Source: Minisyncoccota bacterium
GTDB taxonomy: Bacteria; Patescibacteriota; Minisyncoccia; Phycocordibacterales; JAQTLZ01
NCBI GenBank assembly: GCA_028711065.1
Contig: JAQTSY010000003.1
Span: 1,136 to 65,135 of the forward strand
Reading direction: 5' to 3'
DNA: 64,000 nt
Each line of letters starts with the position of its first letter. The first letter of the stretch is position 1. The position numbers were made by a program, and so were the translations under genes. This document shows, in pieces, positions 6,996 to 33,974 of this stretch. The notes under the pieces are model-generated. The model did no database searches. It saw nothing but the letters and a program-made list of their open reading frames with translations, and was not told the origin of the DNA.

Positions 6996-7029
6996 TTACC
7001 AACAGAGTTATCCACAACTTGGTCTGACG

Positions 7030-17217: not shown

Positions 17218-17290
17218 GCACCCATAGCTCAGCTGGTAGAGCAGATCCCTCTTAAGGATAAGGTCGAAGGTTCGATCCCTTCTGGGTGCA
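17218..17290 (+). tRNA. tRNA-Lys (anticodon CTT).
   Basis: Acceptor gcaccca/tgggtgc, anticodon loop ctCTTaa, T-arm gaagg-ttcgatc-ccttc. Confidence 0.8.
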
Positions 17291-17344
17291 CAGAAAATTT
17301 TGAAGAAATTTTCAGGCACCCAAGCAAAGCGCGGGGCGCTTTGC

Positions 17345-17445
17345 GGGAAGGGATCGAAGCCCCGATGAGCAGATTTTTAAGTTCGTAATCGAACGTAAAA
17401 AATCTCCATCGGGGATACTGGTCGTGTAACGACCGATACCCCAGG
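17345..17445 (+). ncRNA. Structured RNA-like element A (three-way junction): long hairpin ccccgatg...catcgggg, hairpin ggtcg-UGUAA-cgacc, and an outer stem. Unknown family.
   Basis: Stems identified by hand. It is paralogous to element B (17614..17716), and the two show compensatory stem changes. Confidence 0.35.
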
Positions 17446-17461
17446 TGCCTCAATAAACAAT

Positions 17462-17543
17462 GCCGGGGTGGCGAAATTGGCAGACGCACTTGCCTTAGGA
17501 GCAAGCGGAGTAATCCATGGAGGTTCAAGTCCTCTCCCCGGCA
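17462..17543 (+). tRNA. tRNA-Leu (anticodon TAG), class II.
   Basis: Acceptor gccgggg/ccccggc, loop ctTAGga, long variable arm. Confidence 0.85.
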
Positions 17544-17550
17544 CAAAATG

Positions 17551-17893: not shown

Positions 17894-19183
17894 ATGGTTT
17901 TCATCCTTTGGATTGTTTCGCTCGCAGCGAACGCTGGGCTCTTGTGGCTCAACTGGCACTATCTCCATCCGCTTGGAGAATGGTACGAAAAGTCGGCACT
18001 CATCGCACAGGCCTGCTTCATTTTTGTAAGCCTCGGTGATGTAGACATCACAGAGCGAGCAGGAGTACTTTTGTTCGGCTGGCCATTCTTTGAGATCGGC
18101 CCTGGAAAATATCTCGGACTCTGGGGAATCCTTTCTTTTCGGAAGGTCCCCAAGTCAATCGTGTCCCTGATTTTTCCCGATCCAGCCAAGGTCTCCTTCG
18201 ATCATAAGAAGGCAAATGTGGTCGCCGCTGGCAAAGAAATGCCGATTCGGACAACACACTTGGGGATACTGGATACAAGAGACCCGCTTGAAGTATCCAT
18301 GACCACAGAACCAGAAGTCCAAATGCGCTTTATCATTAAAGAGGGAGAAGTGCTCGCATTTCTCTCTGCATTTGGAAGTATCAAAAAATTCTACACGCAG
18401 ATGAGGGGTGTCATTGAGACGAGACTCAACATTGAGTGTCCGCTTAAGACCCTGCGGGCAATCATGATGAATCAACTGCTACTCAACTTACGTCTCAAGG
18501 AAGAGGTTCAGAAAACGATCGACAACACCTCGGGTGGCATTGTCAAAGCGATGCGTATCCTGACACTTCTCGACGTGTCCGTCACGAGCTTCGACAAAGG
18601 ACACGCCCTCAACCTTAGTCTCCGCAAGATGGGAGAAGGAGTGGGAGCCGCAAACGTTATCCACTCCGAAGGCAAGGCGAAAAATGAAGTCGAGCTTGAA
18701 CGTCTGGAATACATTGCGAAAGGAAACAGGGCCCAGCTTATGGCTGAAGTCGATGCGGAAGAGGCATCGGCAAAACGGGTCATGAACACCAAGGGTGGTC
18801 GGCGAGCAGCAGAGTTAGGAACCATCACCAAGATTGCTGGAGAAATCTATAAAAATGCGCAAGTTGCGGTGGTCTCCAACGATCTAGGTTCAAGCCTCAC
18901 TGGGGCATCTGCAGCGCTCGGTATCCTCGGCAAGCTCGAGGGTAAATTAACTCCACCTGACAAAGTCCATAAGGAAGGTGGAGATGGTCATGGACATGAC
19001 AAGACGAAAGATGGGAAGGGCGACGGGAAGCACAAGAAGAAAACTGACAAGGACAAAAAGGGTGGCGGTGGTGGTCCGGGTGAACACGCTGCCCCAAAGC
19101 CCGGCGACGCGACTGCTAAGCCTGACGAGAAAGCGCACGGCGCAGCAGATCCAGGCCACGGAACCCCGCCGACAGGTCACTAA
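17894..19183 (+). CDS. SPFH/band-7 (flotillin-like) membrane protein with a flotillin-type Ala/Glu repeat region and a Lys/His/Gly-rich C-terminal tail. GC-rich.
   Basis: N-terminal transmembrane helix. SPFH-like block (PGKYLGLWGILSFRKVP...), AE-repeat (AQLMAEVDAEEASAKRV), and tail GHGHDKTKDGKGDGKHKKK. Own TTGACT-17-TAATGT promoter and GAGGTG Shine-Dalgarno sequence. Confidence 0.65.
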   Translation: MVFILWIVSLAANAGLLWLNWHYLHPLGEWYEKSALIAQACFIFVSLGDVDITERAGVLLFGWPFFEIGPGKYLGLWGILSFRKVPKSIVSLIFPDPAKVSFDHKKANVVAAGKEMPIRTTHLGILDTRDPLEVSMTTEPEVQMRFIIKEGEVLAFLSAFGSIKKFYTQMRGVIETRLNIECPLKTLRAIMMNQLLLNLRLKEEVQKTIDNTSGGIVKAMRILTLLDVSVTSFDKGHALNLSLRKMGEGVGAANVIHSEGKAKNEVELERLEYIAKGNRAQLMAEVDAEEASAKRVMNTKGGRRAAELGTITKIAGEIYKNAQVAVVSNDLGSSLTGASAALGILGKLEGKLTPPDKVHKEGGDGHGHDKTKDGKGDGKHKKKTDKDKKGGGGGPGEHAAPKPGDATAKPDEKAHGAADPGHGTPPTGH

Positions 19184-20330: not shown

Positions 20331-20349
20331 TAGAATAGCGGGTTATAAT

Positions 20350-20379
20350 GGCTGAAAGAACAAATGGTTTCTTTCAGCC
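20350..20379 (+). terminator. Hairpin ggctgaaagaa-caaatggt-ttctttcagcc (alternative pairing gaacaaatgg/ccatttgttc) ending the island operon.
   Basis: Seen in the sequence. Confidence 0.5.
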
Positions 20380-20413
20380 ATTTGTTCTGTCAATTTTCTA
20401 AAAAAACACTGCC

Positions 20414-20650
20414 TTATGATCCTAAAAGGGTACGAGCGATGAAATTTTTAATAACAATTGCAGCAGTCATAATAAAAAGTCCGATAAGTCCCCACATTAT
20501 ATGCTGGGCACCGGCTTTTCGAGCCTCTTCATCATCAGATTTCCAGATAAATTGAATAACACCGTATACAAAAATAACCACCGCCACGCCAAAAAGAAGT
20601 GTGATGAGAGGATTCAAGACGACCGTTTCCAATTTGCCGATTAAATTCAT
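20414..20650 (-). CDS. VirB2/TrbC-like (type IV secretion, T4SS) pilin-like small protein, paralogue 1.
   Basis: Two hydrophobic helices separated by GVIQFIWKSDDEEARKAGAQHIMWGLIG, the family-typical loop. The ORF-track start is TTG; the internal ATG was chosen as the start. Confidence 0.5.
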   Translation of the reverse strand: MNLIGKLETVVLNPLITLLFGVAVVIFVYGVIQFIWKSDDEEARKAGAQHIMWGLIGLFIMTAAIVIKNFIARTLLGS

Positions 20651-20701
20651 AGGAGAAAAACGGAGAAAAGAGCTCGTTGGCGAGCTCTTTCTTTTCAATT
20701 A

Positions 20702-21034
20702 TTAGCGAGGAAGAAGATTCGGAACGTTATTTGCCTGATTCAACTGAAGAGAATCTCGGAGAAGGTTTACTAAGCCCCAAACAGAAACCATAACGAAAAT
20801 AGCAATAATACCGTAAATCATTGTGTTTCGTCCCGCTGATCGCTTCTCTTCGTCTCCTCCAGCCAGAATGTATGTAAGGACTCCGTAAAGAAAGAGTACA
20901 ACCGCTGCAGAAATAAAGAGCGGTACAAGTTTGGTAAGGATATTTTGGGCAAAGTTAATGAGACCATCAATGCCAGCTGCAAATGCAAGCATTGGAAGTG
21001 CCCAGGCTGATGCAATAATAAGAGTTTTTTTCAT
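20702..21034 (-). CDS. VirB2/TrbC-like pilin-like protein, paralogue 2, with a cleavable signal peptide.
   Basis: Signal peptide MKKTLIIASAWALPMLAFAAG, then LYGVLTYILAGGDEEKRSAGRNTMIYGIIAIFVMV. Confidence 0.6.
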   Translation of the reverse strand: MKKTLIIASAWALPMLAFAAGIDGLINFAQNILTKLVPLFISAAVVLFLYGVLTYILAGGDEEKRSAGRNTMIYGIIAIFVMVSVWGLVNLLRDSLQLNQANNVPNLLPR

Positions 21035-21138
21035 TGCTTAAAAAATAACTTAATAAATTGATAATAATACGTACTCTAATCGTAACAAACCAAGAAAAAT
21101 GAGCAAGAAAGACGTGTGGATACCAAAAAGCCTTTCTC

Positions 21139-21456
21139 TTAGCGACCTGGAGGGGTTAATTGGGGAACAATTGGATTGCTTCCTACCACACTGGTGCTAA
21201 TAATACCGACAAGCGCCCACAATGTTGTAATCACAGCCAGCCCTACAATTCCATAAGTAATGAAACGTATCCCCTCTTTTCGCTTCTCTTCGTCTCCGCC
21301 TGAATAAATATAGCGAAGCACGCCGTAGAGAAAACCTATGACCGCAAGGCCAACAAGAAGAGGGATCACGCTGCCCAAATAGCTATTCAAACATCGGACG
21401 AGAGCGCTAAAGTCAGGGGTGCATACGGCGGCGGCAAGATTTTGTGAAGGAATCAT
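21139..21456 (-). CDS. VirB2/TrbC-like pilin-like protein, paralogue 3.
   Basis: CTPDFSALVRC cysteine pair, then LYGVLRYIYSGGDEEKRKEGIRFITYGIVGLAVI. Confidence 0.6.
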   Translation of the reverse strand: MIPSQNLAAAVCTPDFSALVRCLNSYLGSVIPLLVGLAVIGFLYGVLRYIYSGGDEEKRKEGIRFITYGIVGLAVITTLWALVGIISTSVVGSNPIVPQLTPPGR

Positions 21457-21483
21457 AGAGATAGATAAATTATATTATTAAAA

Positions 21484-22650
21484 TTATTTTAATTGATTAA
21501 TAGTATTGGTAATAATACTGGAAAGCACTGTTGCCCCGAGAAGCACTCCCGCCCCAATCACAGTCCAGAGAAATGCTCTTTTGGCAGTCTCAAGTTCCTC
21601 GCTATTGCCTTGAGCTTTCACGAAGAGAAACCCGGTATATATGATGGCAAGTACAACAAGTATTCCTCCAAGCTGTTCAACTACCTTCAGAACTTTGGTA
21701 AAAAATGTATAAAGGTCGCACGTGCTACCGAGAGGATTCGGGAGTCCCCCGCCACCATTACAACTGCCCCCGCCACCTTTAGGAGTCAGATCAATACCAT
21801 CCCCAGCCTTGGGAAACAGATCAGCGCCGGGATCCGCGGGTGGGTTTGGATTGGTGGCAGGTGTCGGAGATGTTTGGCTACAATCCTTAGCTTGCAACTC
21901 TGACATTTTGGACTGAACAAGGTTGCGGGAATCTTGAAGTTGCGCGACTTCTACAAGAGCGATTTCATTAGCCTTATTTATATTATCTGGGTCGCTCGTA
22001 TCTGCTGCAAGAGCTTTTGCTTGTGCTGTTTTTGCGCTAATTTGAGAATCGATCGCCGAAAGAGCGTTTTGAATTTGCTGAATACTGTAAGCTTTATTTT
22101 CTTCGCAGGAACTACCCGCCCCCGTGCCAGCGCCAGCAGGAATTTGATCCAATATTGAAAGGGGTAAATCGATACCAGTATCGCCGTAACTACCCGAAAC
22201 ACCCCCGATTCCTAAATTAAACAAAGACCCTGATGGAAAATCTGCTGAAGGTGTCTTCGAAGTATACGGAAGAAGCTTTCTATTTATTGTAGTGATATCG
22301 GTAGCGGTGCATTGACGACACAGGCCTCCAGATACTCCTGAATTATTGATATAGCCCGTACATGCAGCATTTGATGGGAAAGCATTCACCGCTTTTTTAT
22401 CTTTACCCACAGCACACCACACAGTACACGTACCGCAAATATTCCAGGAGGATTGTCTGCCTTGGGTACAAGCCGGACCCGAAGAAAAAACATGGACTAC
22501 ATTATTGGAATCTTTTGAACACCATGTCGCTGCGGAGGCGGAAGAAGGAACAGCTCCCAAGATCAAAAGCAAGGCTACGACAGAGAGAAAACCGAAAACA
22601 AAAAATGATGTATGCGCGTAGGCGTCTTTTCCTTTTTTAATAATAGACAT
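21484..22650 (-). CDS. Pilin-like protein, paralogue 4. Large Cys/Gly-rich extracellular N-terminal region fused to a C-terminal VirB2-like pilin module.
   Basis: C-terminus IYTGFLFVKAQGNSEELETAKRAFLWTVIGAGVLL matches the paralogue motif. N-terminal signal or transmembrane segment. Confidence 0.55.
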   Translation of the reverse strand: MSIIKKGKDAYAHTSFFVFGFLSVVALLLILGAVPSSASAATWCSKDSNNVVHVFSSGPACTQGRQSSWNICGTCTVWCAVGKDKKAVNAFPSNAACTGYINNSGVSGGLCRQCTATDITTINRKLLPYTSKTPSADFPSGSLFNLGIGGVSGSYGDTGIDLPLSILDQIPAGAGTGAGSSCEENKAYSIQQIQNALSAIDSQISAKTAQAKALAADTSDPDNINKANEIALVEVAQLQDSRNLVQSKMSELQAKDCSQTSPTPATNPNPPADPGADLFPKAGDGIDLTPKGGGGSCNGGGGLPNPLGSTCDLYTFFTKVLKVVEQLGGILVVLAIIYTGFLFVKAQGNSEELETAKRAFLWTVIGAGVLLGATVLSSIITNTINQLK

Positions 22651-22661
22651 TTTAAAAAAAA

Positions 22662-23540
22662 TTATCCCAGCAAGTTAAAACTTTTATCAACAAGAGAAGT
22701 AAGTATCGTATTCACCAGAAGCCACGCACAAAGCATGATGATAATTCCTACCAGTACACTCCAAAATATATGATGCGCCTCTTCTATTTTCCCAGGATTC
22801 CCTCCTGCGGTCAAATAGAGAAATCCGGCAAAAAAGAGAGAAATGGCCGCAATTGGAACCGCAACCCAAAGAAGAAACTTGATAATACTGGATACAAGAT
22901 CGATAAATTTCTTGTACCCGCAGCTATTAGCACTACCATCTGTAACTGAACCATCACATTCAGGAACAATGCCTTTGTGAGAAGTAAGTACAGCTGTCGG
23001 AGGAGTTGCCGCTGGATTTACTTTTTTCACGTTTTTGACAGGGGTTGCGACAGGGAGACCCTTTTTACAACTTTGACCAACCGGAAGATTATCAGCACAA
23101 GATATCACATTTGCATAAGGACCGCTCACAGGCTTATCTGTACTGTCATATCTGTACCAATCATAGGTACTGGAAGAGTTAGAACCCGGAAGGCCTTTAT
23201 TGCAAGTTTGGCCGGCTTGAAGATCTCGCTGACACTGAATCTGATTATTATAGGGACCCGCAAAAGAATTACCGAGACTATCGTAAATATACCAATCTTC
23301 ACTTGGCGGAGGAGTTCCGGGTTTGCAACTTTCGCCATCTGAAAGTGCGTCACTACAAGAGATAACATCGCTGTAGGGCCCTGCAATGGCAGATCCCGTA
23401 TCGTCGTAGATATACCATTCATCAGCAAATACTTTCTGTATCTGAAAAAAGAAAAGACCATAGAGCAGGAAAATAAATGCGCATACGGAAAAAAGTTGGC
23501 TTGTTTTTTTCGTAAAGGCAATTTTTTTGTCCTTCATCAT
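22662..23540 (-). CDS. Pilin-like protein, paralogue 5. Three tandem ~40-aa DWYxYD...GPY...C...C repeats fused to a C-terminal VirB2-like pilin module.
   Basis: Repeats DEWYIYDDTGSAIAGPY..., DWYIYDSLGNSFAGPY..., DWYRYDSTDKPVSGPY.... C-terminus FFAGFLYLTAGGNPGKIEEAHHIFWSVLVGIIIML. Confidence 0.55.
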   Translation of the reverse strand: MMKDKKIAFTKKTSQLFSVCAFIFLLYGLFFFQIQKVFADEWYIYDDTGSAIAGPYSDVISCSDALSDGESCKPGTPPPSEDWYIYDSLGNSFAGPYNNQIQCQRDLQAGQTCNKGLPGSNSSSTYDWYRYDSTDKPVSGPYANVISCADNLPVGQSCKKGLPVATPVKNVKKVNPAATPPTAVLTSHKGIVPECDGSVTDGSANSCGYKKFIDLVSSIIKFLLWVAVPIAAISLFFAGFLYLTAGGNPGKIEEAHHIFWSVLVGIIIMLCAWLLVNTILTSLVDKSFNLLG

Positions 23541-23549
23541 TGCTGAAAA

Positions 23550-24824
23550 TTATTGATTGAATAAGAGTCCTATTTCCTGACTGGACTGGCCGATTGCATC
23601 AGAATATTTTTCCTGTCCCGAAGAAACTGTCTCAATCATACGCTGGAAGATACTCTTTGTCTCTGTGGGGTTTGGATCAAACCAGGCTTTTGAGCGCAGT
23701 GCTGAGGTGTAAAGAACTGGACTCAAAGGATCCTGCGGAGGGGTCGCGAGAAGATCAAGCCGCACAGGAGGAAGACCGCTCACGTCCGTGAAATTTTTGA
23801 TCACATCTCCCGACGTAAGATAGGTCACCATCGAAAGAGCGCTTGCATAATTCGGCGATGTCTTCAAAATCGCGAGCCCCAACATTTTCCCAAATGTGAG
23901 AGTGACTTTCGTGTCTTTTGGTTGCGGCATAAGAGCAATATCGAGATTCAAATTCGGATTTTCTTGACGGAGTTTGGGAAGTTCTGATGCAAAACCGAAA
24001 TAGACCGCGAGCTTCCCCGAGGAAAAAGAGTGGAAAGAAAGGGGCAACGAGCGGTTCCATGTATAAGCTTCATTCGTCGGATTGCCAAATTGAGCATAGA
24101 AACGAAGGCCATCTTCTGCAGAATTCCCTTCTGAATCCAGAACGGCATTCCAGCCAATTTCGTCTTTTTGCGTGATTGGATTTCCAGACTGAAGAAGAAG
24201 TGTCGCGAGAATTTCTTTTGCATTTGAGACATTTCTAAACTCGCCCATCGCTGTCGCGCTTTGAAGTATGACGGATGCATCATTTTTCTTAGTGAGCGTT
24301 TTTACAAACTTCACAAAATCAGTCCAATTTTTCGGCGGAGCAACGACCGAAGCATTTGTTAAAAGATCCCGATTCCAATACATAACGAGCGGATCAATAA
24401 CAAAAGGCAGGGCCAAAATTCCGTCTGGAGTTATATACATATTCCCCTCTTGTATAAATGTGTCCTGAAACTGCCTTTGACTAAGCGCGGTGAACGGAAT
24501 TTGAGCGATTTTTTCGGAATGTCGAAAGATTTTATCTTGGGCCAAAAGAAAAACATCGGGTCCGTGACCTGTAGCGATCGCTTCAGCAAGTTGAGTATCG
24601 AATGTCGCTTCATCTTTCTCAACGTACGTAAGCTTCAACTCGTCCTGTTTGCCTGCATTCAAGTTGGTAAGAAGAGCATTGAATGTCGCTTGAGGAACTG
24701 TGCCCCAGATGGTAATGGGAGCAGTTGCGCTTCCGTCCGGTGCTTTCACAATCGCAAACGTAATGACGCCAACGATGGCAAAGAAAATCAGAATTCCAAT
24801 AAAGACAATTTGAAAATTCGACAT
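23550..24824 (-). CDS. Extracellular solute-binding protein, family 1 (MalE-like), membrane-anchored; no adjacent permease.
   Basis: ITIWGT...KLTYVEKDEATF...GHGPDVFLLAQD pattern typical of SBP_bac_1. Confidence 0.65.
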   Translation of the reverse strand: MSNFQIVFIGILIFFAIVGVITFAIVKAPDGSATAPITIWGTVPQATFNALLTNLNAGKQDELKLTYVEKDEATFDTQLAEAIATGHGPDVFLLAQDKIFRHSEKIAQIPFTALSQRQFQDTFIQEGNMYITPDGILALPFVIDPLVMYWNRDLLTNASVVAPPKNWTDFVKFVKTLTKKNDASVILQSATAMGEFRNVSNAKEILATLLLQSGNPITQKDEIGWNAVLDSEGNSAEDGLRFYAQFGNPTNEAYTWNRSLPLSFHSFSSGKLAVYFGFASELPKLRQENPNLNLDIALMPQPKDTKVTLTFGKMLGLAILKTSPNYASALSMVTYLTSGDVIKNFTDVSGLPPVRLDLLATPPQDPLSPVLYTSALRSKAWFDPNPTETKSIFQRMIETVSSGQEKYSDAIGQSSQEIGLLFNQ

Positions 24825-24826
24825 AA

Positions 24827-25357
24827 TTATGGCTTTTTAAAAATGAACCCGTAGTGATGATCCCCTGCCCTGATCTGAGTCTGAAATACAAACCCGGCCT
24901 TCTCAAAAAGTGCTCTGGCTTTCACTGCAGGGAAAATAGTGTCGAACGAAGGACCCATGCCCCCAAATGAATCTGTCCAATCAATCACCAGCGCTCGGCC
25001 GCCCGATTTTAAAATTCTTTTTGCCTCCGAAAGGACAGCTTCTTTTGCGGCAGTCTGGAAGAGAATATTTGAAATCACAACACCATCAACAGAATCTGCT
25101 CTCAAATGCGTACCCCCTGGTTTTTCCACGTCCGCCCAAACGATCTCTATGTTTGTGAGATTTCGCTTTCCTCCTTCAGTTTTAATTTTCGAAAGCAGAT
25201 CTTTCTGGACATCAATCGCGTAGACTTTCCCCGCACCGCCGACAGCTTTTGCAATTTCAAAAGCATAAAAGCCGGTACCCGCACCAAAATCCGCGACTCT
25301 TGCTCCAGATTGAAGTCCGAATTGTTGTATATTGTGTTCTGGGTCTGTAAAGGCCAT
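24827..25357 (-). CDS. Class I SAM-dependent methyltransferase.
   Basis: VADFGAGTGFYAFEIA (motif I) and KVYAIDVQKDLL. Confidence 0.75.
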   Translation of the reverse strand: MAFTDPEHNIQQFGLQSGARVADFGAGTGFYAFEIAKAVGGAGKVYAIDVQKDLLSKIKTEGGKRNLTNIEIVWADVEKPGGTHLRADSVDGVVISNILFQTAAKEAVLSEAKRILKSGGRALVIDWTDSFGGMGPSFDTIFPAVKARALFEKAGFVFQTQIRAGDHHYGFIFKKP

Positions 25358-25501
25358 AGAAATGAATCCTTTACAGTATACAACAAAACAAAAGTGAAAG
25401 ACTGGTGGGGCTGGGGAAAAAGAAATGAGTTCGGAGCAACAAAAAACCGCTCGACCGAGCGGTTTTTTGTTGCTAATAATTCTAAGAGATTTGTCCTTTA
25501 A

Positions 25502-27931
25502 CTAGTGAAGAGGACAATTCTCTGGAGCAGTGAATCGAGCCGCGAGATCGCTGTATGCGCTGTCTGTGCCCGGAACCGCTGCGTTAAACGCGTCGATAAT
25601 CTGTTGAGTAGTGAAGCCTGTCGTGAGTCCAGCTGAAGTGTTGAGGAGAGCGTTGACTGTTGCTCGAGCGAGTTGATTGATTCCCCCGCCGTTTGCCTCA
25701 AGCGCTTGCTGGAGCGTAGGGTTTGCTACTGGAGCAGGCTTGCCTTTTGCACTCCACATAATTGAGATCTGTTCGAAGACACTACTAAACAACTGACTTG
25801 GAGTGTATCCGACCCAACTTGCTGGATGATTCTTCCAATATCCTGGAGAACAATACTGCAAGACTGGTGCTTTCGTGTTGGTGATTGTACAAGTCTTTGT
25901 CTCTCCTGGTCCTACTGCAACATCCGTACAAGTATTTCCAGTCTGATTCCATCCTGATGGAACAGTTTCAGTTACTGAATAGGTGCCTGGAGTTACTTCA
26001 TAGTCTTTGTTATTTGCGTCAGTTACCGTACCCGCTCCACCGCCAGTGATCGTTCCACTTCCTGTCGCGTTGATCGAGAAAGAAGTTGTATCACCGCTTG
26101 GGTCAGTTACTTTGTCTACAATAAGGTGGCCATTCTTTGTGTTCGTGAATGTACAGGTTACTGTCTGACCTGCGGCGAGAGTGATACTTGCTGGGGTATT
26201 TCCTTGACCATCACATGTTGCACTTGTTTGAACCCATCCTGATGGAAGAGTTTCAGAAACAGAATAAGTACCAGCGTTTAGAGTCTGGTCATTTGGTGCC
26301 GCAGCGTCAGTGAGAGAAAAGTTTGTGTATCCTGCACCTCCTGCGGTGAAATCAAAGCTTTGTGAGTCGCCAGAAGGATTAGTTACTTTGTCCACAATGA
26401 TGTGGCCCTGCGAAACTACCGTGAATGGCTCACACTGACCGTCTGCTGCCGAGTAGGTAGCATCACCATTATAGTGTGCTTTGAATCCATAACTACCTGC
26501 TGAAAGTGGTCCTTGGCTCGATGATGGATGAGCAACTCCGGAAACAAGCGGAATGCCTGAACCAGAGGCTGTCGCCTGACTATCGCAAGTGCTTGATGTG
26601 TAGAATGAGAAATCTACGGTTCCTGTTGGAGTCGGACCTGAACCTGAAACAGTTGCTTTATCATGAACTGTCACTGGACTCGTTACTGAACCACTCACTA
26701 CTGCCTCAGAAGCATTATGAACTTCAGTGGCTACTGATGGAGTGAGTTTGTTTACCGTAAGAAGTTCGCATGCTCCTTCGCTTGCATTGTACGTATCGCT
26801 TCCTGCATAGCTAGCTTTGTAAGACATCGCGGGAGCAGCTGCTGCAACTCCAGTTGTCTCTGCATGTCCTGTGCCATCGAGCGCTACTACTTGAGGAGCG
26901 CCATTTGTTGCTGTACATGCGCCGTCGCTGTAAAGCTGGAAGGAAACATTGCCAGTTGGAGTTCCTCCTGTACCAGTGACAGTTGCATTGTCATGCACCA
27001 TATCCCCGACTGTTGCGGAGGTGATGACTGCATGAGTAGCACTGTGAATATCAGTAGAAGTCTGGGAATCAAGTTTTGTTGCCGCTAATGGCTCGCATGC
27101 GCCATCTGCTGCTACATAATTGCCATCGCCATTATAGTGAGCTTTGTAAGAGAGACCTGTTGTTGGAACAGTTGTTGCGCTTGATTCTGCTACCCCCGCG
27201 ACGAGTGCTACGCCCGACTGTGTTGTTGGAGTCGCCTCACAAGTGGTATTTGGATAGAGATTAAAATTGACAGTGCCTGTAGGAACAGGGCCGCCAGTTT
27301 CGCCAGTAACCGTTGCTTGATCGTGTACAGAAGAACCGATTGGAGCTGAAGTGATAACACCATGATTTGCATCATGAACATTCGTAGTTACCGTCGGAGT
27401 GTGAACAACCTTCAGAATCTTTGATGCACCGAGTGTTGGGCCTGCTGTCTCATCAAGAGCGTCAGCATGAGATTTTCCTCCGCTGTAGCTTGTGATTGCA
27501 TCAATATGTCGCGTGGAATTCACAATTTCATTTGCATGATTGACTGTATAGGGAATGAGAGCTGAGCTAAGACTTGCAACTCCCGTACCGCCGATTCTTG
27601 GGACTGCGCCCAATGCATGAGAGACACCATCCGGTGTAGTGAGCGTCCACGTTCCGCCTTCAAATGCACAGTTCGGAGTAGGAAGTGCCGAAAGTGTTGC
27701 TTTATACTTAATAGCTTCACCATCAGACACTGTTCCTGATCCGATGTTTGTTGTTCCGTCAGAACGGAACGCGGCAACAGAAATTCCTCCGCCGTTATCG
27801 GTACAACCTGCTGGGTCAACATCTGCTCTTGCCGGAGTACCTGCAAAGGCGACTGCAAGCAAGAGACTCAAAACTGAAGCAGAAAGGATCTTGCCGAAAA
27901 TCGATCTTTTTTGCGTTGTTATTTTTTTCAT
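25502..27931 (-). CDS. Large secreted surface protein (809 aa) with four or more Ig-like repeats (VHDxATVxG...PTGTVxFxLY...C...Y.GD..Y), two prealbumin/SdrD-B-like GxYxVxET...C...TCTxTNT domains, and a C-terminal CSPGYWKNH region. Putative adhesin.
   Basis: Signal peptide. Internal repeat periodicity about 85-90 aa visible in the translation. Confidence 0.65.
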   Translation of the reverse strand: MKKITTQKRSIFGKILSASVLSLLLAVAFAGTPARADVDPAGCTDNGGGISVAAFRSDGTTNIGSGTVSDGEAIKYKATLSALPTPNCAFEGGTWTLTTPDGVSHALGAVPRIGGTGVASLSSALIPYTVNHANEIVNSTRHIDAITSYSGGKSHADALDETAGPTLGASKILKVVHTPTVTTNVHDANHGVITSAPIGSSVHDQATVTGETGGPVPTGTVNFNLYPNTTCEATPTTQSGVALVAGVAESSATTVPTTGLSYKAHYNGDGNYVAADGACEPLAATKLDSQTSTDIHSATHAVITSATVGDMVHDNATVTGTGGTPTGNVSFQLYSDGACTATNGAPQVVALDGTGHAETTGVAAAAPAMSYKASYAGSDTYNASEGACELLTVNKLTPSVATEVHNASEAVVSGSVTSPVTVHDKATVSGSGPTPTGTVDFSFYTSSTCDSQATASGSGIPLVSGVAHPSSSQGPLSAGSYGFKAHYNGDATYSAADGQCEPFTVVSQGHIIVDKVTNPSGDSQSFDFTAGGAGYTNFSLTDAAAPNDQTLNAGTYSVSETLPSGWVQTSATCDGQGNTPASITLAAGQTVTCTFTNTKNGHLIVDKVTDPSGDTTSFSINATGSGTITGGGAGTVTDANNKDYEVTPGTYSVTETVPSGWNQTGNTCTDVAVGPGETKTCTITNTKAPVLQYCSPGYWKNHPASWVGYTPSQLFSSVFEQISIMWSAKGKPAPVANPTLQQALEANGGGINQLARATVNALLNTSAGLTTGFTTQQIIDAFNAAVPGTDSAYSDLAARFTAPENCPLH

Positions 27932-28060
27932 ATTTTTGTTTTTATTCTTATAATTTAATTGTTAAAGAAAACCACTCTGCGTAAGTTTTCGACCTTGTCA
28001 TTGCTCTTTATTCTACCTTGCACTCTTTTTGATTGCACCGTTGATTTTTTAAAATATATA

Positions 28061-28077
28061 TTGTACAAGCTGTACAA
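28061..28077. promoter_or_regulatory. Near-perfect palindrome TTGTACA-agc-TGTACAA in the promoter region of the adhesin gene. Candidate operator.
   Basis: Seen in the sequence, about 130 bp upstream of the start at 27931. Confidence 0.3.
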
Positions 28078-28168
28078 TATGTATATAACCTGTGCATTTT
28101 GTGTGGATAAAAAAGCAATCATTCGACCTCTATAGTGACGCCACAGATTAATTCTTCTTACAAACGAA

Positions 28169-28199
28169 AGCCCCGCGAAGCCGAAGGCTTCGCGGGGCT
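28169..28199. terminator. Strong GC hairpin agccccgcgaagcc-gaa-ggcttcgcggggct ending the type IV pilus operon; possibly bidirectional.
   Basis: 14-bp perfect stem followed by an A/T tract. Confidence 0.7.
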
Positions 28200-28215
28200 T
28201 CAAAACTTCAAAAAT

Positions 28216-28707
28216 TTAGCGAGTAACAGTTATAACCTCGTTTAATTCTGCAAAGGGAGCGGAAACGGTAATTCTTGTCGTTGTAGCATCTTTTTGAACA
28301 GTATACCCGCTGTTATAGTCCGAAGCGGTCTTAAAATAAGCCTTGCTTGCATCGGGATCGATAGGCAACGAAGGAAAATAGGTCGGAACAAGACAAGCAT
28401 TGAGATCAATCGCATTCGATATCGCGGTGCTTGATGCGATTTTCCAAATAGTCGTGGTCGCGATGTCCTGGCCACAAGTAGAATCAGTTGCCAATCGAAA
28501 TACTCCTTTATTATCAGCGATCCTCTGGCCGATGGCATTTAAAATTTCATTTACATTGCTCTGACGCTGTAAATTTCTCGCTTGAGCAAATTGCCGAGAA
28601 GGATTAATAGCAATGAGAACAATACCCGCCAATATGGCGATTATTCCGATCACAACAAGCACTTCAACCAAAGTGAAGCCGCCTTTCCTTGCAATTTGAG
28701 TTTTCAT
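28216..28707 (-). CDS. Type IV pilin (major pilin candidate).
   Basis: Prepilin motif KGGFTLVEVLVVIGIIAILAGIV (G^FTLVE); size about 160 aa; C-terminal Cys pair. Confidence 0.8.
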   Translation of the reverse strand: MKTQIARKGGFTLVEVLVVIGIIAILAGIVLIAINPSRQFAQARNLQRQSNVNEILNAIGQRIADNKGVFRLATDSTCGQDIATTTIWKIASSTAISNAIDLNACLVPTYFPSLPIDPDASKAYFKTASDYNSGYTVQKDATTTRITVSAPFAELNEVITVTR

Positions 28708-28733
28708 AACAACTCCCCTATTCTGCCACATTT

Positions 28734-29165
28734 TTACGGCAATGAACAGTTCTCGGCACTCGAAGTCGCTGTTTCTTCAAATGAGAGAATAGATAAGTTA
28801 CCGCTATTCAAAAGCGCTTTCAAATTGGTATGAGCGGAATGTACCAGAGCCCTTGTTTGAATTTCAATACCTCCAGGCGAAGCCTGAAGAGGACAAATTC
28901 TGCAAGAATCTTCTCCTTCCATGATTTTCTCATTTCCCGCGTATAAACTATCTTCTGAAAGGTTCATACGAGCTGTTTCAAAACAGGCCAGCGCCAAAAG
29001 AGCACTGCGTTTTTTATTTTCCGAATCCAAAATATTGAAGCGGGTGAAAAAAGAACCTAAATTTAAAGAAAGAAGAATTGCAAGCAAAACCGCAGAGATA
29101 ATAATCGCCGAGACAAGCGCGATGAATCCTTTCTTTTTTTCTTTTTTCTGTTTTCTACCTGACAT
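28734..29165 (-). CDS. Minor pilin-like / pseudopilin. Pilin-type N-terminal helix but no Glu at position +5.
   Basis: KKGFIALVSAIIISAVLLAILL N-terminal helix; location inside the pilin operon. Confidence 0.4.
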   Translation of the reverse strand: MSGRKQKKEKKKGFIALVSAIIISAVLLAILLSLNLGSFFTRFNILDSENKKRSALLALACFETARMNLSEDSLYAGNEKIMEGEDSCRICPLQASPGGIEIQTRALVHSAHTNLKALLNSGNLSILSFEETATSSAENCSLP

Positions 29166-29622
29166 AATACGTGCTTGTTGCGAATCGACTTCCTATTTGT
29201 ATGACAACCTGAATCCCGGGAGGACTGTCAGAAGATGTGGGAGAAATGTAAGAAAAAGAAACAGAATCAACTTTTACAGACTCACTATTCAATGGAATGG
29301 CTTCTTTATTGGATCTCGAGAGTGTGAGTAAACCATCCTTTGCCACAAGTGTCAGAGGATTTGTTGAAAAATTATATTTGCGAACAATAAGTTTAGTCGA
29401 AACTCCCGGTCCAAGCGGAGCGTCTATCGAAGAAACGCTCGAAAGGACCCAGTCTATTTTTTTGAAAAGAAAATTCAACTCTTCATCCACAAGAATGCTC
29501 TGACTTTGTCTTCCGGATGATTCAATTAAATAATAGGACGCGGAAAGAATGCCTCCAAGAATAAGTGAAAGCAGGCCTATATAGAGTATTGTTTCGATTA
29601 AAGTGAAGCCGCCCTTTTTCAT
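29155..29622 (-). CDS. Type IV pilin-like protein.
   Basis: MKKGGFTLIETILYIGLLSLILGG prepilin signal. Confidence 0.7.
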   Translation of the reverse strand: MKKGGFTLIETILYIGLLSLILGGILSASYYLIESSGRQSQSILVDEELNFLFKKIDWVLSSVSSIDAPLGPGVSTKLIVRKYNFSTNPLTLVAKDGLLTLSRSNKEAIPLNSESVKVDSVSFSYISPTSSDSPPGIQVVIQIGSRFATSTYYVR

Positions 29623-31055
29623 TGTGGTGAAATTGCTACAACCGCGCCATTTTGGAGCGACGCATACACGCGATTATTTTCGTAATCAAGACCGGAAATG
29701 CGAAAAGAAAAAGATACTTTTCCTATCGCAACGGCTTTGCTTGGATCAGAAACATCCCAAATCTCCATCTCATTCGCTTCTTTTTGGGTACCGCATTTTA
29801 CGCACACGCCAAGATACACTAGATTCCCGCTCGCCAAAATCTCCGTGACATCGCCATCAACAAAATATCCAAAAGCCGGTGGAATATTTTTGGGATCTCT
29901 TATATCAAAAATGAGAAATTCCGGTTCGCTTCCGTCACTTTTTCCTCGCTCCCGCCCAAGATACAATTTTTGCCCCAAAACGGCCAAAGAAAGGCCGGAT
30001 TTTTCTCCTGGAGCACTTCCCGAAGAGAGGAGCGTAGGGAAATAAGGATCTGAAATGTCGACAATTTTAAGCGGTGTGAAAGGTGCAGTAGAACCAGGGC
30101 CCGTAGCGAGATATGCAATATTTCCCTGCACAACAATATGATTTACATTGCGATTTATTTTGAGACTCCCCTGCCAAATCGGATTCCCCGGATCTGACAC
30201 ATCAAAAATATGAAATTCATTTTGCGCGCTCGGGAGAAGTCTTTGTGTTCCAAGATACGCTTTTGTATCGTAATAAAAAACACTTCTTCCCAAACCATTC
30301 GTGACTCCTGGAATTGTGAGAGAAGCTAGAAGAATGGGCACGTTTGTATCTATTATTTCAAACTGTTCAGTGGATGAAGCGTTGGCCACGTAAGCATAAT
30401 TTCCCGCAACATCTACCTCTTGGGGCATTCCGGTATTGAGAGAAGAAGCACTGCCGTTTTTAATATCGTAGGTAAAAAAATTCGAAACATCGGGAGTTGT
30501 AGATGCGGTTGCATAGATGATGCCATTTTTCACATCCATCCCAGTAATTTCTGGTGCGGGCAGTGAAAAAGATTCTTGTTTAGTAAGATCCCAAAGAGAA
30601 CCTGGAAGCATACTCCCTCCGCAATCATTCCCCAATTTTGAAAGTATTGATTTGCTTCCAAAAAAACTTGCAAGGGTTATGCTTTGCGGCCTCTTCCCGC
30701 TTTGCCAAGAGAGAATTTGCGAAACCTGTTTTCTGCAGGGGGTGACATCGGAAACCAAAAGCGTTTTCGTATAGAGGCCGCTATAGAGCCCTTCGTCTGT
30801 ATTCGTAATGACAGATGAGGTGGCGATAATCCCATTGAAATCGGTAAATGATTTCCCGCGAAGGGCTTCGAATTCGCGCGACGCAAGAGAGAGGCCGTGA
30901 TTATTGAGATCGGTATCGAGCGTCAGAGTTTGGTTAGAAAAACTAAGAAGAATAAGCGCGGTAAAGGTAATAGACAAAACCGCAAGCGCGATAATAATTT
31001 CGAGCGTACTTATTCCGCGAGTGTAATTCTTTTTAATAATTAATCCTCCCTTCAT
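29619..31055 (-). CDS. Pilin-like N-terminus fused to a beta-propeller (LVIVD-like repeats). Putative PilY1-like tip or minor pilin.
   Basis: RGISTLEIIIALAVL prepilin-type N-terminus. Repeated GNxAYVA/GNIAYLA/GNLVYLG blocks. Confidence 0.5.
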   Translation of the reverse strand: MKGGLIIKKNYTRGISTLEIIIALAVLSITFTALILLSFSNQTLTLDTDLNNHGLSLASREFEALRGKSFTDFNGIIATSSVITNTDEGLYSGLYTKTLLVSDVTPCRKQVSQILSWQSGKRPQSITLASFFGSKSILSKLGNDCGGSMLPGSLWDLTKQESFSLPAPEITGMDVKNGIIYATASTTPDVSNFFTYDIKNGSASSLNTGMPQEVDVAGNYAYVANASSTEQFEIIDTNVPILLASLTIPGVTNGLGRSVFYYDTKAYLGTQRLLPSAQNEFHIFDVSDPGNPIWQGSLKINRNVNHIVVQGNIAYLATGPGSTAPFTPLKIVDISDPYFPTLLSSGSAPGEKSGLSLAVLGQKLYLGRERGKSDGSEPEFLIFDIRDPKNIPPAFGYFVDGDVTEILASGNLVYLGVCVKCGTQKEANEMEIWDVSDPSKAVAIGKVSFSFRISGLDYENNRVYASLQNGAVVAISPQ

Positions 31056-31521
31056 TGTTGATGGTAATAAAATCAGTATGAACCCCGTCAGTTATTGTTG
31101 TCGTTCCAACTCCTTTTTGAAATGATGGTAAAAAGGCCGGAACAGAATCCCCGGACAGTGCTTCAAAAACGATATCTTCTTCTAAAGAAACGCTAACAGC
31201 AGTATTTCTCGGAATAAATTCATTTCTCTCATCGTCTGGATCAAATTCTGTACCCTGAAATATGGAGTAGCCGTTTTCATCGATGTGCACTCCGTGCGGA
31301 GCTTCATCGATATTGTTCATTGCCTGATTTCGGGCTTTTTGAAGTGTGCTCACTAAAAGCGCTTTCTCGCTTCGAAAAAGATATGATCGATAAAAATCCA
31401 TTCCCACGGGCAAAGAAAGTCCGAGAACAATGCCGAATAACCCGATCACAACGAGAATTTCGACTAAAGTGAACCCACGGGAAAAATTGCCCTTACCGGC
31501 GAAGATGCGCAGTGATTTCAT
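31033..31521 (-). CDS. Pseudopilin (GspH/FimT-like).
   Basis: RGFTLVEILVVIGLFGIVLG prepilin signal. The start is probably MKSLRIF. Confidence 0.65.
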   Translation of the reverse strand: MKSLRIFAGKGNFSRGFTLVEILVVIGLFGIVLGLSLPVGMDFYRSYLFRSEKALLVSTLQKARNQAMNNIDEAPHGVHIDENGYSIFQGTEFDPDDERNEFIPRNTAVSVSLEEDIVFEALSGDSVPAFLPSFQKGVGTTTITDGVHTDFITINNEGRINY

Positions 31522-32776
31522 AGATAGGAGTAATAACCGATACAGCAACAAGGCCGACCAAAAGGCCCATGATAATCATAAGCACCGGCTCGACAGAACT
31601 CGCAAGATTTCTTGTGATGTCATCAACTTCCCGTTCGAACATATCGGCTATATACAGAAAGGTATTTGAGAGATTCCCCGTCGTTTCTCCGACCGCAACC
31701 ATGTGAGAAAGCGTATCCGGAAAAAGTTTTTCATTTTTATTGAAATACGTCGAAATACGCTCGCCCTTCATAACACTCTCCGTCAAATTCGAAAGTTCCT
31801 TTTGAAAAACTAAATTATTAGTACTTTCCCCAGTAAGTAAAATTGCCTCACTGACTGTCACTCCGCCTTTCAAAAGAAGTCCAAGCGTTCGGGACATATT
31901 CGCCATGTTGTAGCTTTGCACGATCTTTTTTACAAAAGGAATTTTCAAAAGAAATACATCGAGCCAAAATCGAATTCTCTCAAATCGTTTCACCAAAAAA
32001 ATGACAGTAGCCGAAAGAAGAAATATGAAGAGAAGAAATGACCAACCATAAAGATGCAAAAATGAGCTTACCGAGATGAGAATCCGGGTAGTGAGAGGAA
32101 TTGCGATATGAAGGCTCGTAAAAATCGGAAGAATTTTAGGAAAAATAAAAGCAGTAAGGAGAAGGGTGAGGCCCAGCGTTGCTATCGTAACGAAGATCGG
32201 ATAGATCAAAGCACCGACAATTCTTTGTTTCAGGGCATGCTTTTTTTCCAGTTCATGTGAAAGGTATTCGAGATTTTGATCCAAAATTCCGCTCGTTTCC
32301 CCCACCCGAATCATGTTCACCGCAAATGCGCCGAAAAGATTTTTAAATCGCTCAAGACTTGTTGAAAGATACTGGCCCGAAGAAACATCCGCGATGATCG
32401 TCTCGAAAAATATCGCCCGGCCTTTTGAACGATTTTGTTTTTGAATGATAAGAAGGCTTTCAACAATCGGCACTCCGCCATGAATAAGAAAACTAAGTCG
32501 TTTCGAAAAATGAATCTTGTCTTTCATGCTGAAATGTCCGAAGCGCACCCTTTCCGATACGCGCTTGAAAATACTTTTTTGTTCTTCTTTCGAAGGAGCT
32601 TTTTTTTCTCCCACCACGCTTCGAGCGGGTTTCGAACGATGAACAGAATCGAGATGTTTGGGAGACTTCATCTCCTTTTTCTTTCTGAACACGCGAGAAA
32701 TCGAACGACCAACACTGCCTATGTGCTGTTTCAAAGCATCCTCAACATGAGAAATTTCTTTATTCATGACCGACAC
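31493..32776 (-). CDS. pilC: Type IV pilus / type II secretion (T2SS) platform protein PilC/GspF.
   Basis: Two T2SSF repeats and three transmembrane segments; matches the family over the whole length. Confidence 0.85.
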   Translation of the reverse strand: MSVMNKEISHVEDALKQHIGSVGRSISRVFRKKKEMKSPKHLDSVHRSKPARSVVGEKKAPSKEEQKSIFKRVSERVRFGHFSMKDKIHFSKRLSFLIHGGVPIVESLLIIQKQNRSKGRAIFFETIIADVSSGQYLSTSLERFKNLFGAFAVNMIRVGETSGILDQNLEYLSHELEKKHALKQRIVGALIYPIFVTIATLGLTLLLTAFIFPKILPIFTSLHIAIPLTTRILISVSSFLHLYGWSFLLFIFLLSATVIFLVKRFERIRFWLDVFLLKIPFVKKIVQSYNMANMSRTLGLLLKGGVTVSEAILLTGESTNNLVFQKELSNLTESVMKGERISTYFNKNEKLFPDTLSHMVAVGETTGNLSNTFLYIADMFEREVDDITRNLASSVEPVLMIIMGLLVGLVAVSVITPIYEITAHLRR

Positions 32777-33974
32777 GCAATACTTCCTCGAGAGTAGTTA
32801 TGCCAGCTTTTGCTTTTGAGAGGCCATCTTCCACCATGGTTTTCATTCCGGCTTTCACGGCAATCTCCCGAATCGTCGAGGCGGAAGCATGATCAATAAT
32901 TGCCTCCCGAATGTCGTGATCCACTTCAAGTACTTCGTAAATACCGACTCTCCCACGATATCCAGTACCGTTGCACTCATCACAACCCGCTCCGTAGTAG
33001 TAAACTGTTTTTTCATCAAAACCTTTTCCAGCAAGGGTTTGAGTAAAACTTTTTAATTCGTGTTCGGATAATTTTTTCTCTTTCTTGCAAGATGCACAAA
33101 TTTTCCGCACGAGACGCTGTCCAATCGCCACATTCACCGTCGAGGCAACGAGAAATGGCTCGATCTTCATATCCAAAAGACGAGGCAGAGTTGTCGCGGC
33201 ATCGCTCGTGTGAAGAGTCGAAAGAAGAAGGTGTCCCGTAAGGGCGGTGTTGACGGCAATTCCAGCCGTTTCGGTGTCGCGAATTTCCCCCACCATGATG
33301 ATGTTCGGATCTTGGCGCAAAATCGAGCGCAGGCCGTTTGCAAAAGTGAGCGAACTTCGCGGATTTACTTGAATCTGCTCGATTCCGTCGAGCGCATACT
33401 CGATCGGGTCTTCAATCGTAATGATTGAAACTTCTTTGGTATTGAGCATCTTCAAAATGGTGTAGAGCGTCGTCGTTTTCCCAGAGCCAGTTGGGCCTGT
33501 GGCAAGAATCATTCCTGAAGATTTTTCCGCCGCTTTTTTCAACTTTGCATAATCAGTTTCCGAGAGTCCGAGCATTTCAAGCGAAAGATTTTCCGCCTTG
33601 TCAGAAAGAAGACGAAGCACTGCGTTCTCGCCAAAAAATGTCGGAACAATGGAAACTCGGACATCAACTGGCAAAGTGTCTTTCAAAGAAATGCGAAAAC
33701 GTCCATCTTGCGGAGCCTGATGTTCATCGGTTCGCAAAGAGGCGAGAATTTTTATTCGAGAAATAATTTCAGGGTGGATGTCTTTGGGAAATACGCAAAG
33801 CTCCTCCAAAACACCGTCAATACGGAGCCGGACCCGCACCTTTTTCTCCGACGGATCGATGTGAATGTCTGACGCGTGATTTCCATGCGCGTATTCAACA
33901 AGCGAATCGATAAGATTCACGATGGAAATATCCTTCCACTCACCGAGCTCTTTTCTAGTTCTCTGTTCTGCCAT
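32760..33974 (-). CDS. pilB: Type IV pilus assembly ATPase (GspE/PilB family, short form with tetra-Cys motif).
   Basis: Walker A GPTGSGKTT, Asp box, His box, and CASCKK...CDECNGTGYRGR. Confidence 0.85.
   Translation of the reverse strand: MAEQRTRKELGEWKDISIVNLIDSLVEYAHGNHASDIHIDPSEKKVRVRLRIDGVLEELCVFPKDIHPEIISRIKILASLRTDEHQAPQDGRFRISLKDTLPVDVRVSIVPTFFGENAVLRLLSDKAENLSLEMLGLSETDYAKLKKAAEKSSGMILATGPTGSGKTTTLYTILKMLNTKEVSIITIEDPIEYALDGIEQIQVNPRSSLTFANGLRSILRQDPNIIMVGEIRDTETAGIAVNTALTGHLLLSTLHTSDAATTLPRLLDMKIEPFLVASTVNVAIGQRLVRKICASCKKEKKLSEHELKSFTQTLAGKGFDEKTVYYYGAGCDECNGTGYRGRVGIYEVLEVDHDIREAIIDHASASTIREIAVKAGMKTMVEDGLSKAKAGITTLEEVLRVGHE

Follow-up and report, generated by a model that had tools for sequence, protein, structure and literature searches.

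We present here the analysis of a gene cluster in a 64,000-nucleotide (nt) stretch of DNA, contig JAQTSY010000003.1 of assembly GCA_028711065.1, which is called the window below and is meant at its full length. The source is a metagenome-assembled genome (MAG) of Candidatus Paceibacterota, and this bears out the initial annotation, made from the letters alone, in taking the organism for a Patescibacterium. On the minus strand, positions 20414-25357 hold seven closely packed genes, which follow one another in the order of an S-adenosylmethionine (SAM) methyltransferase, a solute-binding protein (SBP) and five proteins of the pilin family of type IV secretion systems (T4SS), numbered here as slots 1 to 5. 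All eight genes to which the annotation had drawn attention, namely the five pilins, the SBP, the methyltransferase and an adjoining adhesin of 809 amino acids (aa), are present where it placed them and on the minus strand. The features of the cluster, in the direction of reading, are the following.

24827..25357, minus strand: SAM methyltransferase of 176 aa, matching Methyltransf_31/25/11; first gene of the conserved cluster.
23550..24824, minus strand: SBP (family 1/8, MalE-like) of 424 aa; SBP_bac_8 76 bits, SBP_bac_1 61 bits.
22662..23540, minus strand: slot 1 pilin of 292 aa; PF18895 30.6 bits.
21484..22650, minus strand: slot 2 pilin of 388 aa; PF18895 32.0 bits.
21139..21456, minus strand: slot 3 pilin of 105 aa; PF18895 35.3 bits.
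21035..21138, minus strand: intergenic gap of 104 nt, with a promoter-like site and a DnaA-box-like motif.
20702..21034, minus strand: slot 4 pilin of 110 aa; PF18895 41.2 bits.
20666..20691, minus strand: GC-rich hairpin with a U tract at the junction of slots 4 and 5; terminator- or attenuator-like.
20414..20650, minus strand: slot 5 pilin of 78 aa; PF18895 29.5 bits, scored on a 94-aa open reading frame (ORF).
20347..20382, strand-neutral: bidirectional terminator-like hairpin closing the operon, from hairpin prediction.

The intergenic spacing in the operon is 2-27 nt, with the 104-nt promoter gap as the sole exception, and the methyltransferase stop lies 2 nt ahead of the SBP start. In the NCBI records the two genes with large N-terminal heads (slots 1 and 2) are named 'pilin' and the SBP is named 'extracellular solute-binding protein'. 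The last pilin, previously read as 94 aa, is corrected to 78 aa with an ATG at 20650, which matches the public gene call; the 94-aa ORF is judged to be over-extended, because a terminator-like hairpin lies inside its TTG extension and the public call gives 78 aa.

Judged by profile scores, the five proteins are members of Pfam family PF18895 (T4SS_pilin). They reach 29.5, 41.2, 35.3, 32.0 and 30.6 bits, from slot 5 back to slot 1, and all exceed the gathering score of 26.6 bits. The initial annotation had described them as T4SS pilins of VirB2/TrbC architecture and had proposed a Pfam hidden Markov model (HMM) search as a check; the search places all five in PF18895, with TrbC/VirB2 (PF04956, gathering score 27.9 bits) as the second-best Pfam family, recurrent and sub-threshold. 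In six loci, PF18895 matches 28 of the 28 pilin modules, and PF04956 matches 5 of the 28 related modules at E <= 0.01 (best 1.2e-5). When the window is searched with an HMM made from related modules, exactly five ORFs match, and these are the five pilins. The shared C-terminal module with two hydrophobic helices and a charged loop, as first described, is seen in the alignment and in a hydropathy scan, and consists of an amphipathic lead-in helix, transmembrane (TM) helix 1, the charged loop (GGDEEKR, GGNPGKIEE, QGNSEELE or SDDEEAR) and TM helix 2. It is about 70 residues long, and its helix-loop-helix register holds over 28 aligned sequences with the charged loop conserved. Five adjacent genes of this kind also agree with the published description of a Patescibacteria array as 2-11 PF18895/PF04956 genes in tandem or one gene apart (PMC12102498). 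It might be argued that such matches are compositional artefacts and that the genes encode unrelated small hydrophobic membrane proteins, the module being short and hydrophobic and the same scans giving weak matches to many unrelated TM families. We regard this as hardly credible, since all five proteins lie above a curated cut-off, the register and the charged loop are kept throughout the 28 sequences, and orthologues are retained in at least 80 loci with a fixed gene order.

Two further searches bear on the kind of pilin encoded here. No N_methyl/class III signal (PF07963, G/F-x-x-x-E) is found in the five pilins, and the neighbouring prepilin-like genes do match. The slot 4 pilin has no match by tblastn in 72,556 plasmids, so that there is no sign of an origin from a mobile element; a tblastn of VirB2 in the plasmid collection matched close Rhizobiaceae VirB2 only.

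Beyond the module, the five proteins differ from one another in a regular way. Sec signal peptides are predicted in slots 1, 2 and 4 and not in slots 3 and 5, and a Cys-x(9-12)-Cys loop stands directly ahead of the module in slots 1-3. Slot 1 consists of a Sec signal (..KVFA/DE), three repeats, a Cys-x11-Cys loop and then the pilin module. The repeats, read from the translation, are three units of about 40 aa (DWYxYD..GPY..C..C) at residues 40-167, with no DNA-level tandem repeat beneath them. The slot 1 head is unrelated among all homologues found (162-404 aa), and the module behind it is 70-73% identical to its orthologues; such a wholesale replacement of the head between close relatives is as expected for a host-contacting part. 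Slot 2 consists of a Sec signal (..ASA/A), a head with 8 Cys at about residues 42-145, a variable coiled-coil or low-complexity middle and the pilin module. Its homologues number only 6 among 5.8 billion proteins, and in these 6 orthologues the 8 Cys of the head are invariant and the middle region varies. Slot 3 has no signal peptide and shows an N-terminal tail with two Cys ahead of the module; its orthologue in a close relative (L003, 173 aa) carries a signal peptide, which implies an N-out topology. Slot 4 is a Sec signal (AFA/AG) with a bare module, and slot 5 is a minimal module without signal peptide. In related arrays, too, the last gene is the shortest, mostly with two hydrophobic segments. 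Among the pilins of 39 other complete arrays none exceeds 229 aa, which points to the large heads as a speciality of this clade.

The claim of two paralogues with exported N-terminal heads thus agrees with their Sec signals and Cys-containing heads. The structure prediction suggested for them succeeded in one part: AlphaFold, run on small alignments, gives mean pLDDT values of 46.7 for the 388-aa and 50.2 for the 292-aa protein, and only the helical hairpin of the latter at residues 209-283 (helices 209-244 and 249-283) reaches 70-77, the heads remaining below 50. Relaxed Pfam scans of the pilin heads yield nothing credible; a likeness of the DWYxYD..GP repeat to a GYF-like domain is not supported by them. 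Elsewhere in the window, 48060-48947 on the plus strand encodes a DsbA/thioredoxin-like exported oxidoreductase, which is in keeping with the many exported proteins rich in disulfides that are encoded nearby, namely the pilin heads and the adhesin. It also agrees with the MdbA-like family of thiol-disulfide oxidoreductases that has been reported as enriched in the candidate phyla radiation (PMC6744442).

We then present an overall view of the operon in related loci, which carry handles of the form L003 where they have to be told apart. An alignment of 29 SBPs served as seed for a metagenome scan, which gave 80 loci with SBPs 40-47% identical, of which 71 have at least 600 nt downstream of the SBP and 67 have enough upstream sequence for counting; an earlier scan with a three-sequence SBP alignment, whose patterns came from the TM anchor, had returned 2 loci. 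On the whole, a pilin-module gene directly follows the SBP in 70 of the 71 loci, and the gene immediately ahead of the SBP is the methyltransferase in 58 of the 67, often with overlapping stop and start codons. The order methyltransferase, SBP, pilins is found in all six loci examined gene by gene, and no pilin genes are found in locus L006. Among 39 complete arrays, 13 have 5 pilins, 12 have 6 and 6 have 7, so that 31 of 39 hold 5-7. The gene that recurs upstream is gyrA; the 80 metagenomic loci together contain 57 gyrA-like ORFs. These counts uphold the suggested linkage of SBP and methyltransferase with the pilins. The synteny comparison put forward in the annotation accordingly divides: pilins, SBP and methyltransferase are conserved together, and the adhesin and the type IV pilus operon next to them are not. 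No report of an SBP-methyltransferase-pilin operon was found in the literature searched, and among the matches listed in the expression tables of PMC10936435, as far as these were accessible, no SBP is adjacent to PF18895 genes.

Convergent to the end of the pilin operon, 17894-19183 on the plus strand encodes a 429-aa protein with a Lys/Gly/His-rich low-complexity C-terminal third, for which there is no Pfam match and which an iterative search links to SPFH/Band 7-like proteins. In 10 related loci such proteins are encoded on the strand opposite to the array, at a distance of 0.8-3.3 kb downstream.

The relation between the five paralogues can be read from their closest relatives. In L003 and L004, whose SBPs are 80-81% identical to that of the window, the same five slots occur in the same order, and the module identity within slots 1 to 5 is 70-73%, 75-83%, 68-85%, 92-94% and 62-78% respectively, while between slots it is only 15-45%. 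The latter range agrees with the divergence of published arrays, with a mean of about 25% and a maximum of 54% identity (PMC12102498). Slot signatures are still recognisable in loci with SBPs just 44-47% identical, and two such loci carry an ORF with fused tandem modules. Single ORFs with two complete pilin modules in tandem are seen in the more distant relatives L008 (12652-13455, 267 aa) and L009 (12122-12835, 237 aa). Recent tandem duplication is ruled out by the slot orthology together with the lack of DNA repeats; to judge from the alignments, the five genes are old, differentiated paralogues and not recent duplicates.

This bears on the notion that an array is a store of interchangeable major pilins kept for antigenic or host-range variation, a role that has been put forward for the VirB2 paralogues in Bartonella and Anaplasma and, more generally, for arrays in Patescibacteria (PMC12102498). 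The paralogue identity of 15-45% agrees with the 25% average reported for arrays in the same work, and the slot 1 head is swapped between close relatives, both as such variation would have it. Against it, orthologues of every slot persist in genomes with SBPs of only 44-47% identity, the slots are set apart from one another in a systematic way by signal peptide, Cys loop and length, the array size is steady at 5-7 genes, and one slot only has its own promoter gap. The slot orthology, the systematic differences, the stable size and the single promoter gap argue for division of labour and not redundancy, and we consider interchangeable pilins quite unlikely at this locus.

The promoter gap itself is a conserved feature. 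The gap upstream of slot 4 measures 104-128 nt in the window, L003, L004, L008 and L009, and contains the motif ATCCACA..CTTG. In the window it holds a promoter-like match at 21088-21061, and just upstream of this site the DnaA-box-like GTATCCACA at 21115-21123 (minus strand). The largest internal gap precedes the penultimate pilin in 31 of 41 metagenomic arrays, and in 18 of 39 such gaps the coding strand has TTATCCACA, which we take to be the DnaA-box consensus, within 1 mismatch, against 0.55 expected from shuffles. Downstream of slot 4, the hairpin at the junction with slot 5 keeps its stem in L003 and L004 with a different loop, and is absent in L008 and L009; in each of the five loci that were folded, the last pilin is followed by strong terminator-like hairpins. 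Slot 4 has both the best PF18895 score (41.2 bits) and the highest conservation of any slot (92-94% identity). Since it is a bare module with a Sec signal, top conservation, its own promoter gap and a downstream hairpin, slot 4 is the candidate for the major pilin. As for the window as a whole, TATCCACA occurs 4 times against 1.06 expected, and DnaA-box-like sites are also present at 7008-7016 (plus strand), 28102-28110 (minus strand) and 54759-54767 (minus strand), with perfect boxes upstream of the adhesin gene and of the ORF at 53901-54704.

The SBP scores 76.2 bits with SBP_bac_8 and 61.3 bits with SBP_bac_1 (cut-offs 27 and 26) and shows only distant similarity to solved sugar SBPs. It has more than 1758 homologues, the best 120 of which are mostly 42-49% identical, with a few close relatives at 54-100%. 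The protein is anchored by an N-terminal TM segment (residues 6-24), which starts as M-x-x-S/T-x-F-(Q/R/K)-hydrophobic with the F invariant in 29 of 29 aligned homologues; such N-terminal conservation is unusual for a mere membrane anchor. A class III (prepilin) site does not fit the SBP, where G/A at position -1 is absent. We also looked for an ABC transporter to which it might belong. No BPD_transp or ABC_tran match occurs among the scanned window ORFs (at least 150 aa), no LSGGQ/EAA motif in a six-frame translation of the window, and no CUT1 EAA motif in the 80 loci by a motif test, in which the only ABC ATPase-like ORFs were a fused 602-aa ABC protein and a UvrA-like protein, none of importer type. 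The SBP was therefore rightly called an orphan, there being no transporter partner in the window or in the 80 related loci. The methyltransferase is a class I SAM enzyme (Methyltransf_31/25/11) with no TM segment, thus predicted to be cytoplasmic; its closest solved structures, 3dh0 and 3i9f, are both uncharacterised methyltransferases.

Based on these results, we favour, with a probability of roughly 55%, the reading that the cluster is a vertically inherited Paceibacteria operon whose five VirB2-like pilins are subunits of one heteromeric T4SS-type surface structure, with the SBP as a partner and with the machinery encoded elsewhere. The five paralogues would be non-redundant subunits of a single structure of the conjugative-pilus type, in which slot 4 would supply the bulk subunit and slots 1-3 and 5 minor or initiating subunits, and slots 1 and 2 would display disulfide-rich heads in this clade. 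The adjacent type IV pilus genes would have no part in assembly, which would fall to the VirB4-type T4SS encoded at another place, often near dnaA, in most Patescibacteria. The SBP would be a dedicated partner and would probably bind a glycan of the host, which it would sense or capture at the site of contact. The methyltransferase, because it is cytoplasmic, would be limited in its substrate to the charged loop of the pilins or the short N-terminal tail of the SBP.

Several observations weigh against this reading. With regard to machinery, VirB4, VirB6 and VirD4 are absent from the 64-kb window and within 8-10 kb in 86 related loci. The window ORFs of at least 150 aa that were scanned include no T4SS ATPase or channel gene, as the initial remark that no VirB4/VirB6 genes are nearby had it for this window; in the 80 metagenomic loci, VirB4/VirD4 were checked on ORFs of at least 450 aa, ten ambiguous ones by Pfam scan and the rest by similarity clustering and by eye. 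With regard to the pilins, the best PF04956 score in the window is 21.5 bits (E 2.8e-4), below the cut-off and for the 388-aa protein only. The 28-module profile finds no pilin among all PDB sequences (best E 0.044, an unrelated TM protein), and hhalign against Agrobacterium tumefaciens VirB2 (8cue) gives a probability of 7%, with a single sequence as template and with the two helices aligned in register. A Foldseek search of the 292-aa model against PDB returns generic helical hairpins only (best E 0.29), and hydrophobic hairpins of two helices are easily matched by composition. Homology of the five proteins to conjugative pilins is plausible, and the label 'VirB2' is less firm than the family name implies. 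With regard to the partners, the roles of the SBP and the methyltransferase are drawn from gene linkage alone, and the methyltransferase gene may have a housekeeping function and owe its place to conserved synteny with gyrA. In addition, no filament of such proteins has been observed in any Patescibacterium, only a 'potential' one being spoken of (PMC12857230).

The main rival to a surface fibre takes up these same points. It supposes that the pilin-like hairpins stay in the membrane as a hetero-oligomer and form, with the anchored SBP, a receptor or uptake complex for host sugars, a bindosome-like or channel-like device for which 'pilin' would be merely a family name. In its favour, SBP and pilins are almost never separated (70 of 71 loci), the surroundings of the cluster in the 80 loci and the window contain neither an ABC permease nor an ABC ATPase, a T4SS ATPase is likewise missing nearby, and similarity to solved T4SS pilins is undetectable. 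A precedent exists in the Sulfolobus bindosome, where SBPs are organised by small pilin-like proteins (PMC3047682), and it has been suggested that the T4SS of Patescibacteria serves for import (PMC11665869). Such a device would nevertheless lack a linked energising component; PF18895 and the sub-threshold TrbC matches indicate conjugative pilins; large exported heads and a strongly expressed 'major' gene suit a fibre better than a channel; and the bindosome pilin-like proteins carry class III signals, which are absent here. We hold a membrane-resident complex to be unlikely.

The reading of the operon can be carried further, to a proposal that we offer as possible, though rather unlikely as a whole. 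The operon would then encode a new organelle, in which a VirB2-type fibre or membrane assembly and a transporter-less SBP detect or capture host glycans, the methyltransferase modifies the loop or the tail, and the DnaA boxes make the major subunit's expression follow the cell cycle. If this were true, an SBP-coupled, conjugation-independent use of T4SS pilins would underlie host dependence in the largest class of Patescibacteria.

We now turn to the genes beside the cluster, of which two features need to be given.

25502..27931, minus strand: Ig-like/SpaA-like secreted stalk protein of 809 aa (Big_3_5, SpaA_2/4); neighbour only.
28216..33974, minus strand: type IV pilus operon with PilB, PilC, four prepilin-like genes and an LVIVD protein (T2SSE, T2SSF, N_methyl); neighbour only.

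The initial annotation had joined both to the cluster, as one attachment island of pilins, SBP, methyltransferase and 809-aa adhesin with PilB/PilC as the only assembly system. In the window these genes do share one orientation without interruption, and L003 likewise has the type IV pilus operon next to the cluster. In other respects the idea does not hold. The adhesin was found in the window only, being absent from the six related loci examined gene by gene (L003, L004 and L007-L009 among them), and cannot be counted into a single island. Adjacency of the type IV pilus operon is confined to the window and L003, four of the related loci lack the operon, and the recurrent upstream neighbour is gyrA. 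A 284-nt gap with its own promoter-like elements splits the adhesin gene from the type IV pilus operon. Lastly, without N_methyl/class III signals the pilins cannot be handled by PilD and PilB/PilC through any known mechanism, so that type IV pilus machinery as the assembler is ruled out by the missing signals and the non-conserved adjacency, and with it the role that had been given to the neighbouring operon. The island is thus largely refuted by synteny, and we consider it very improbable.

The adhesin is of interest in its own right. Its domains are Big_3_5 (three copies) and SpaA-like (two copies). It had been described as ending in CSPGYWKNH, while this motif instead opens a 122-aa C-terminal domain (25505-25870, minus strand; residues 688-809) with a second Cys at its end. 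The domain has no Pfam or NCBIfam model, and relaxed Pfam scans of the N- and C-terminal parts of the adhesin gave nothing credible. With 1688 cluster representatives matched, 246 of them at E <= 1e-10, it sits in nearly every case at the C-terminal end of a stalk protein with Big_3_5, SpaA or SdrD_B, and one protein, P0137, has six copies. It is an uncharacterised, widespread terminal domain of surface proteins. Elsewhere in the window, 35046-36293 (minus strand) encodes a 415-aa protein with a Thr/Pro-rich linker of about 250 residues (TPTPSP repeats) and a C-terminal peptidoglycan-binding domain; the TPTPSP repeat yields spurious long ORFs on both strands (35545-36087 and 35581-36108). At 16723-17544 (plus strand) four tRNA genes (Cys, Leu-taa, Lys-ctt, Leu-tag) lie between rbfA and the SPFH-like gene, and the long ORFs that overlap these genes on either strand are artefacts. 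At 41369-44422 (minus strand), the window's largest ORF encodes a 1017-aa protein with a transglutaminase-core domain, otherwise unannotated, which may be another envelope or host-interaction protein.

It remains to set the operon beside what has been published. A survey of 3,035 Patescibacteria genomes by PF18895 and PF04956 counted 441 arrays, each with 2-11 pilin genes, at an identity of 25% on average (Quinonero-Coronel et al. 2025, PMC12102498); pilin genes were near virB4 in 1135 of 1948 assemblies and away from it in about 40%, and arrays were most abundant in Microgenomatia and Saccharimonadia, not in Paceibacteria. In Southlakia epibionticum (Saccharimonadia), a pilin series inside the T4SS cluster is essential (Wang et al. 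2023, PMC10633639). PF18895 proteins rank with the most strongly expressed genes of unknown function in enrichment cultures of Patescibacteria (PMC10936435), and the role of the T4SS in Patescibacteria has been called "completely unknown" (PMC11665869). The pilin family, its arrays and its presence in Patescibacteria are thus already published (PMC12102498, PMC10633639, PMC12857230). What is new is the architecture around the array, that is, the operon with SBP and methyltransferase, the fixed slots and the internal promoter gap.

This architecture matters in several ways. The T4SS and the pilin array are essential in the one species tested, and the Paceibacteria array is a stable set of five to seven subunits locked to a sugar-type SBP and a methyltransferase, away from virB4. 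The operon offers handles for experiment in a soluble SBP ectodomain, a candidate modifying enzyme and a candidate major subunit. Slot orthology counts against reading arrays as variation by amplification. In genome annotation, the array should be kept separate from the 809-aa adhesin and from the genes of the type IV pilus.

Among known systems, type II secretion and type IV pili, with one major and four minor subunits, serve as a working analogy: there are likewise five distinct conserved subunits in one operon, one of them apparently abundant and the larger ones suited to the tip. They differ in belonging to an unrelated protein family with unrelated assembly machinery, and the window pilins have no class III signal. 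For the SBP, PrgZ of pCF10, which is OppA-like, and ChvE of Agrobacterium are examples of SBPs without a transporter operon of their own that feed an external signal into a T4SS-related process; both are of other SBP families, and neither is known to be in an operon with pilin genes. VirB2/TrbC (PF04956; T-pilus, PDB 8cue/8exh) shares with the window pilins a signal peptide, two hydrophobic helices, a short polar loop and a small mature protein, whereas the window pilins score below the cut-off of that family, have a strongly charged loop (DEEKR), belong to a monoderm envelope and have no adjacent VirB machinery, nor is a cyclase or acetylase gene seen with them. The VirB2 clusters of Bartonella and Anaplasma (PMC12102498) are alike in their tandem virB2-like genes, but those genes are thought to be interchangeable while the window slots are orthologous and structurally differentiated. 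The Sulfolobus bindosome (Bas; PMC3047682) also ties sugar SBPs to small pilin-like proteins in a cell without outer membrane, yet through type IV pilin-like proteins, class III signals on the SBPs and a PilB/PilC-type motor, where the window has VirB2-like proteins and an ordinary signal anchor. The closest likeness is to the Southlakia array and the 441 catalogued arrays, which are, as in the window, tandem sets of divergent PF18895/VirB2-like pilins on the chromosome of a monoderm Patescibacterium with no relaxase context. The Southlakia array lies inside a virB4 cluster, while the window array has no T4SS gene in 64 kb and stands beside gyrA in related genomes. Moreover, the window array forms an operon with an SBP and a methyltransferase, which go unmentioned in PMC10633639 and PMC12102498, and two of its members carry large heads.

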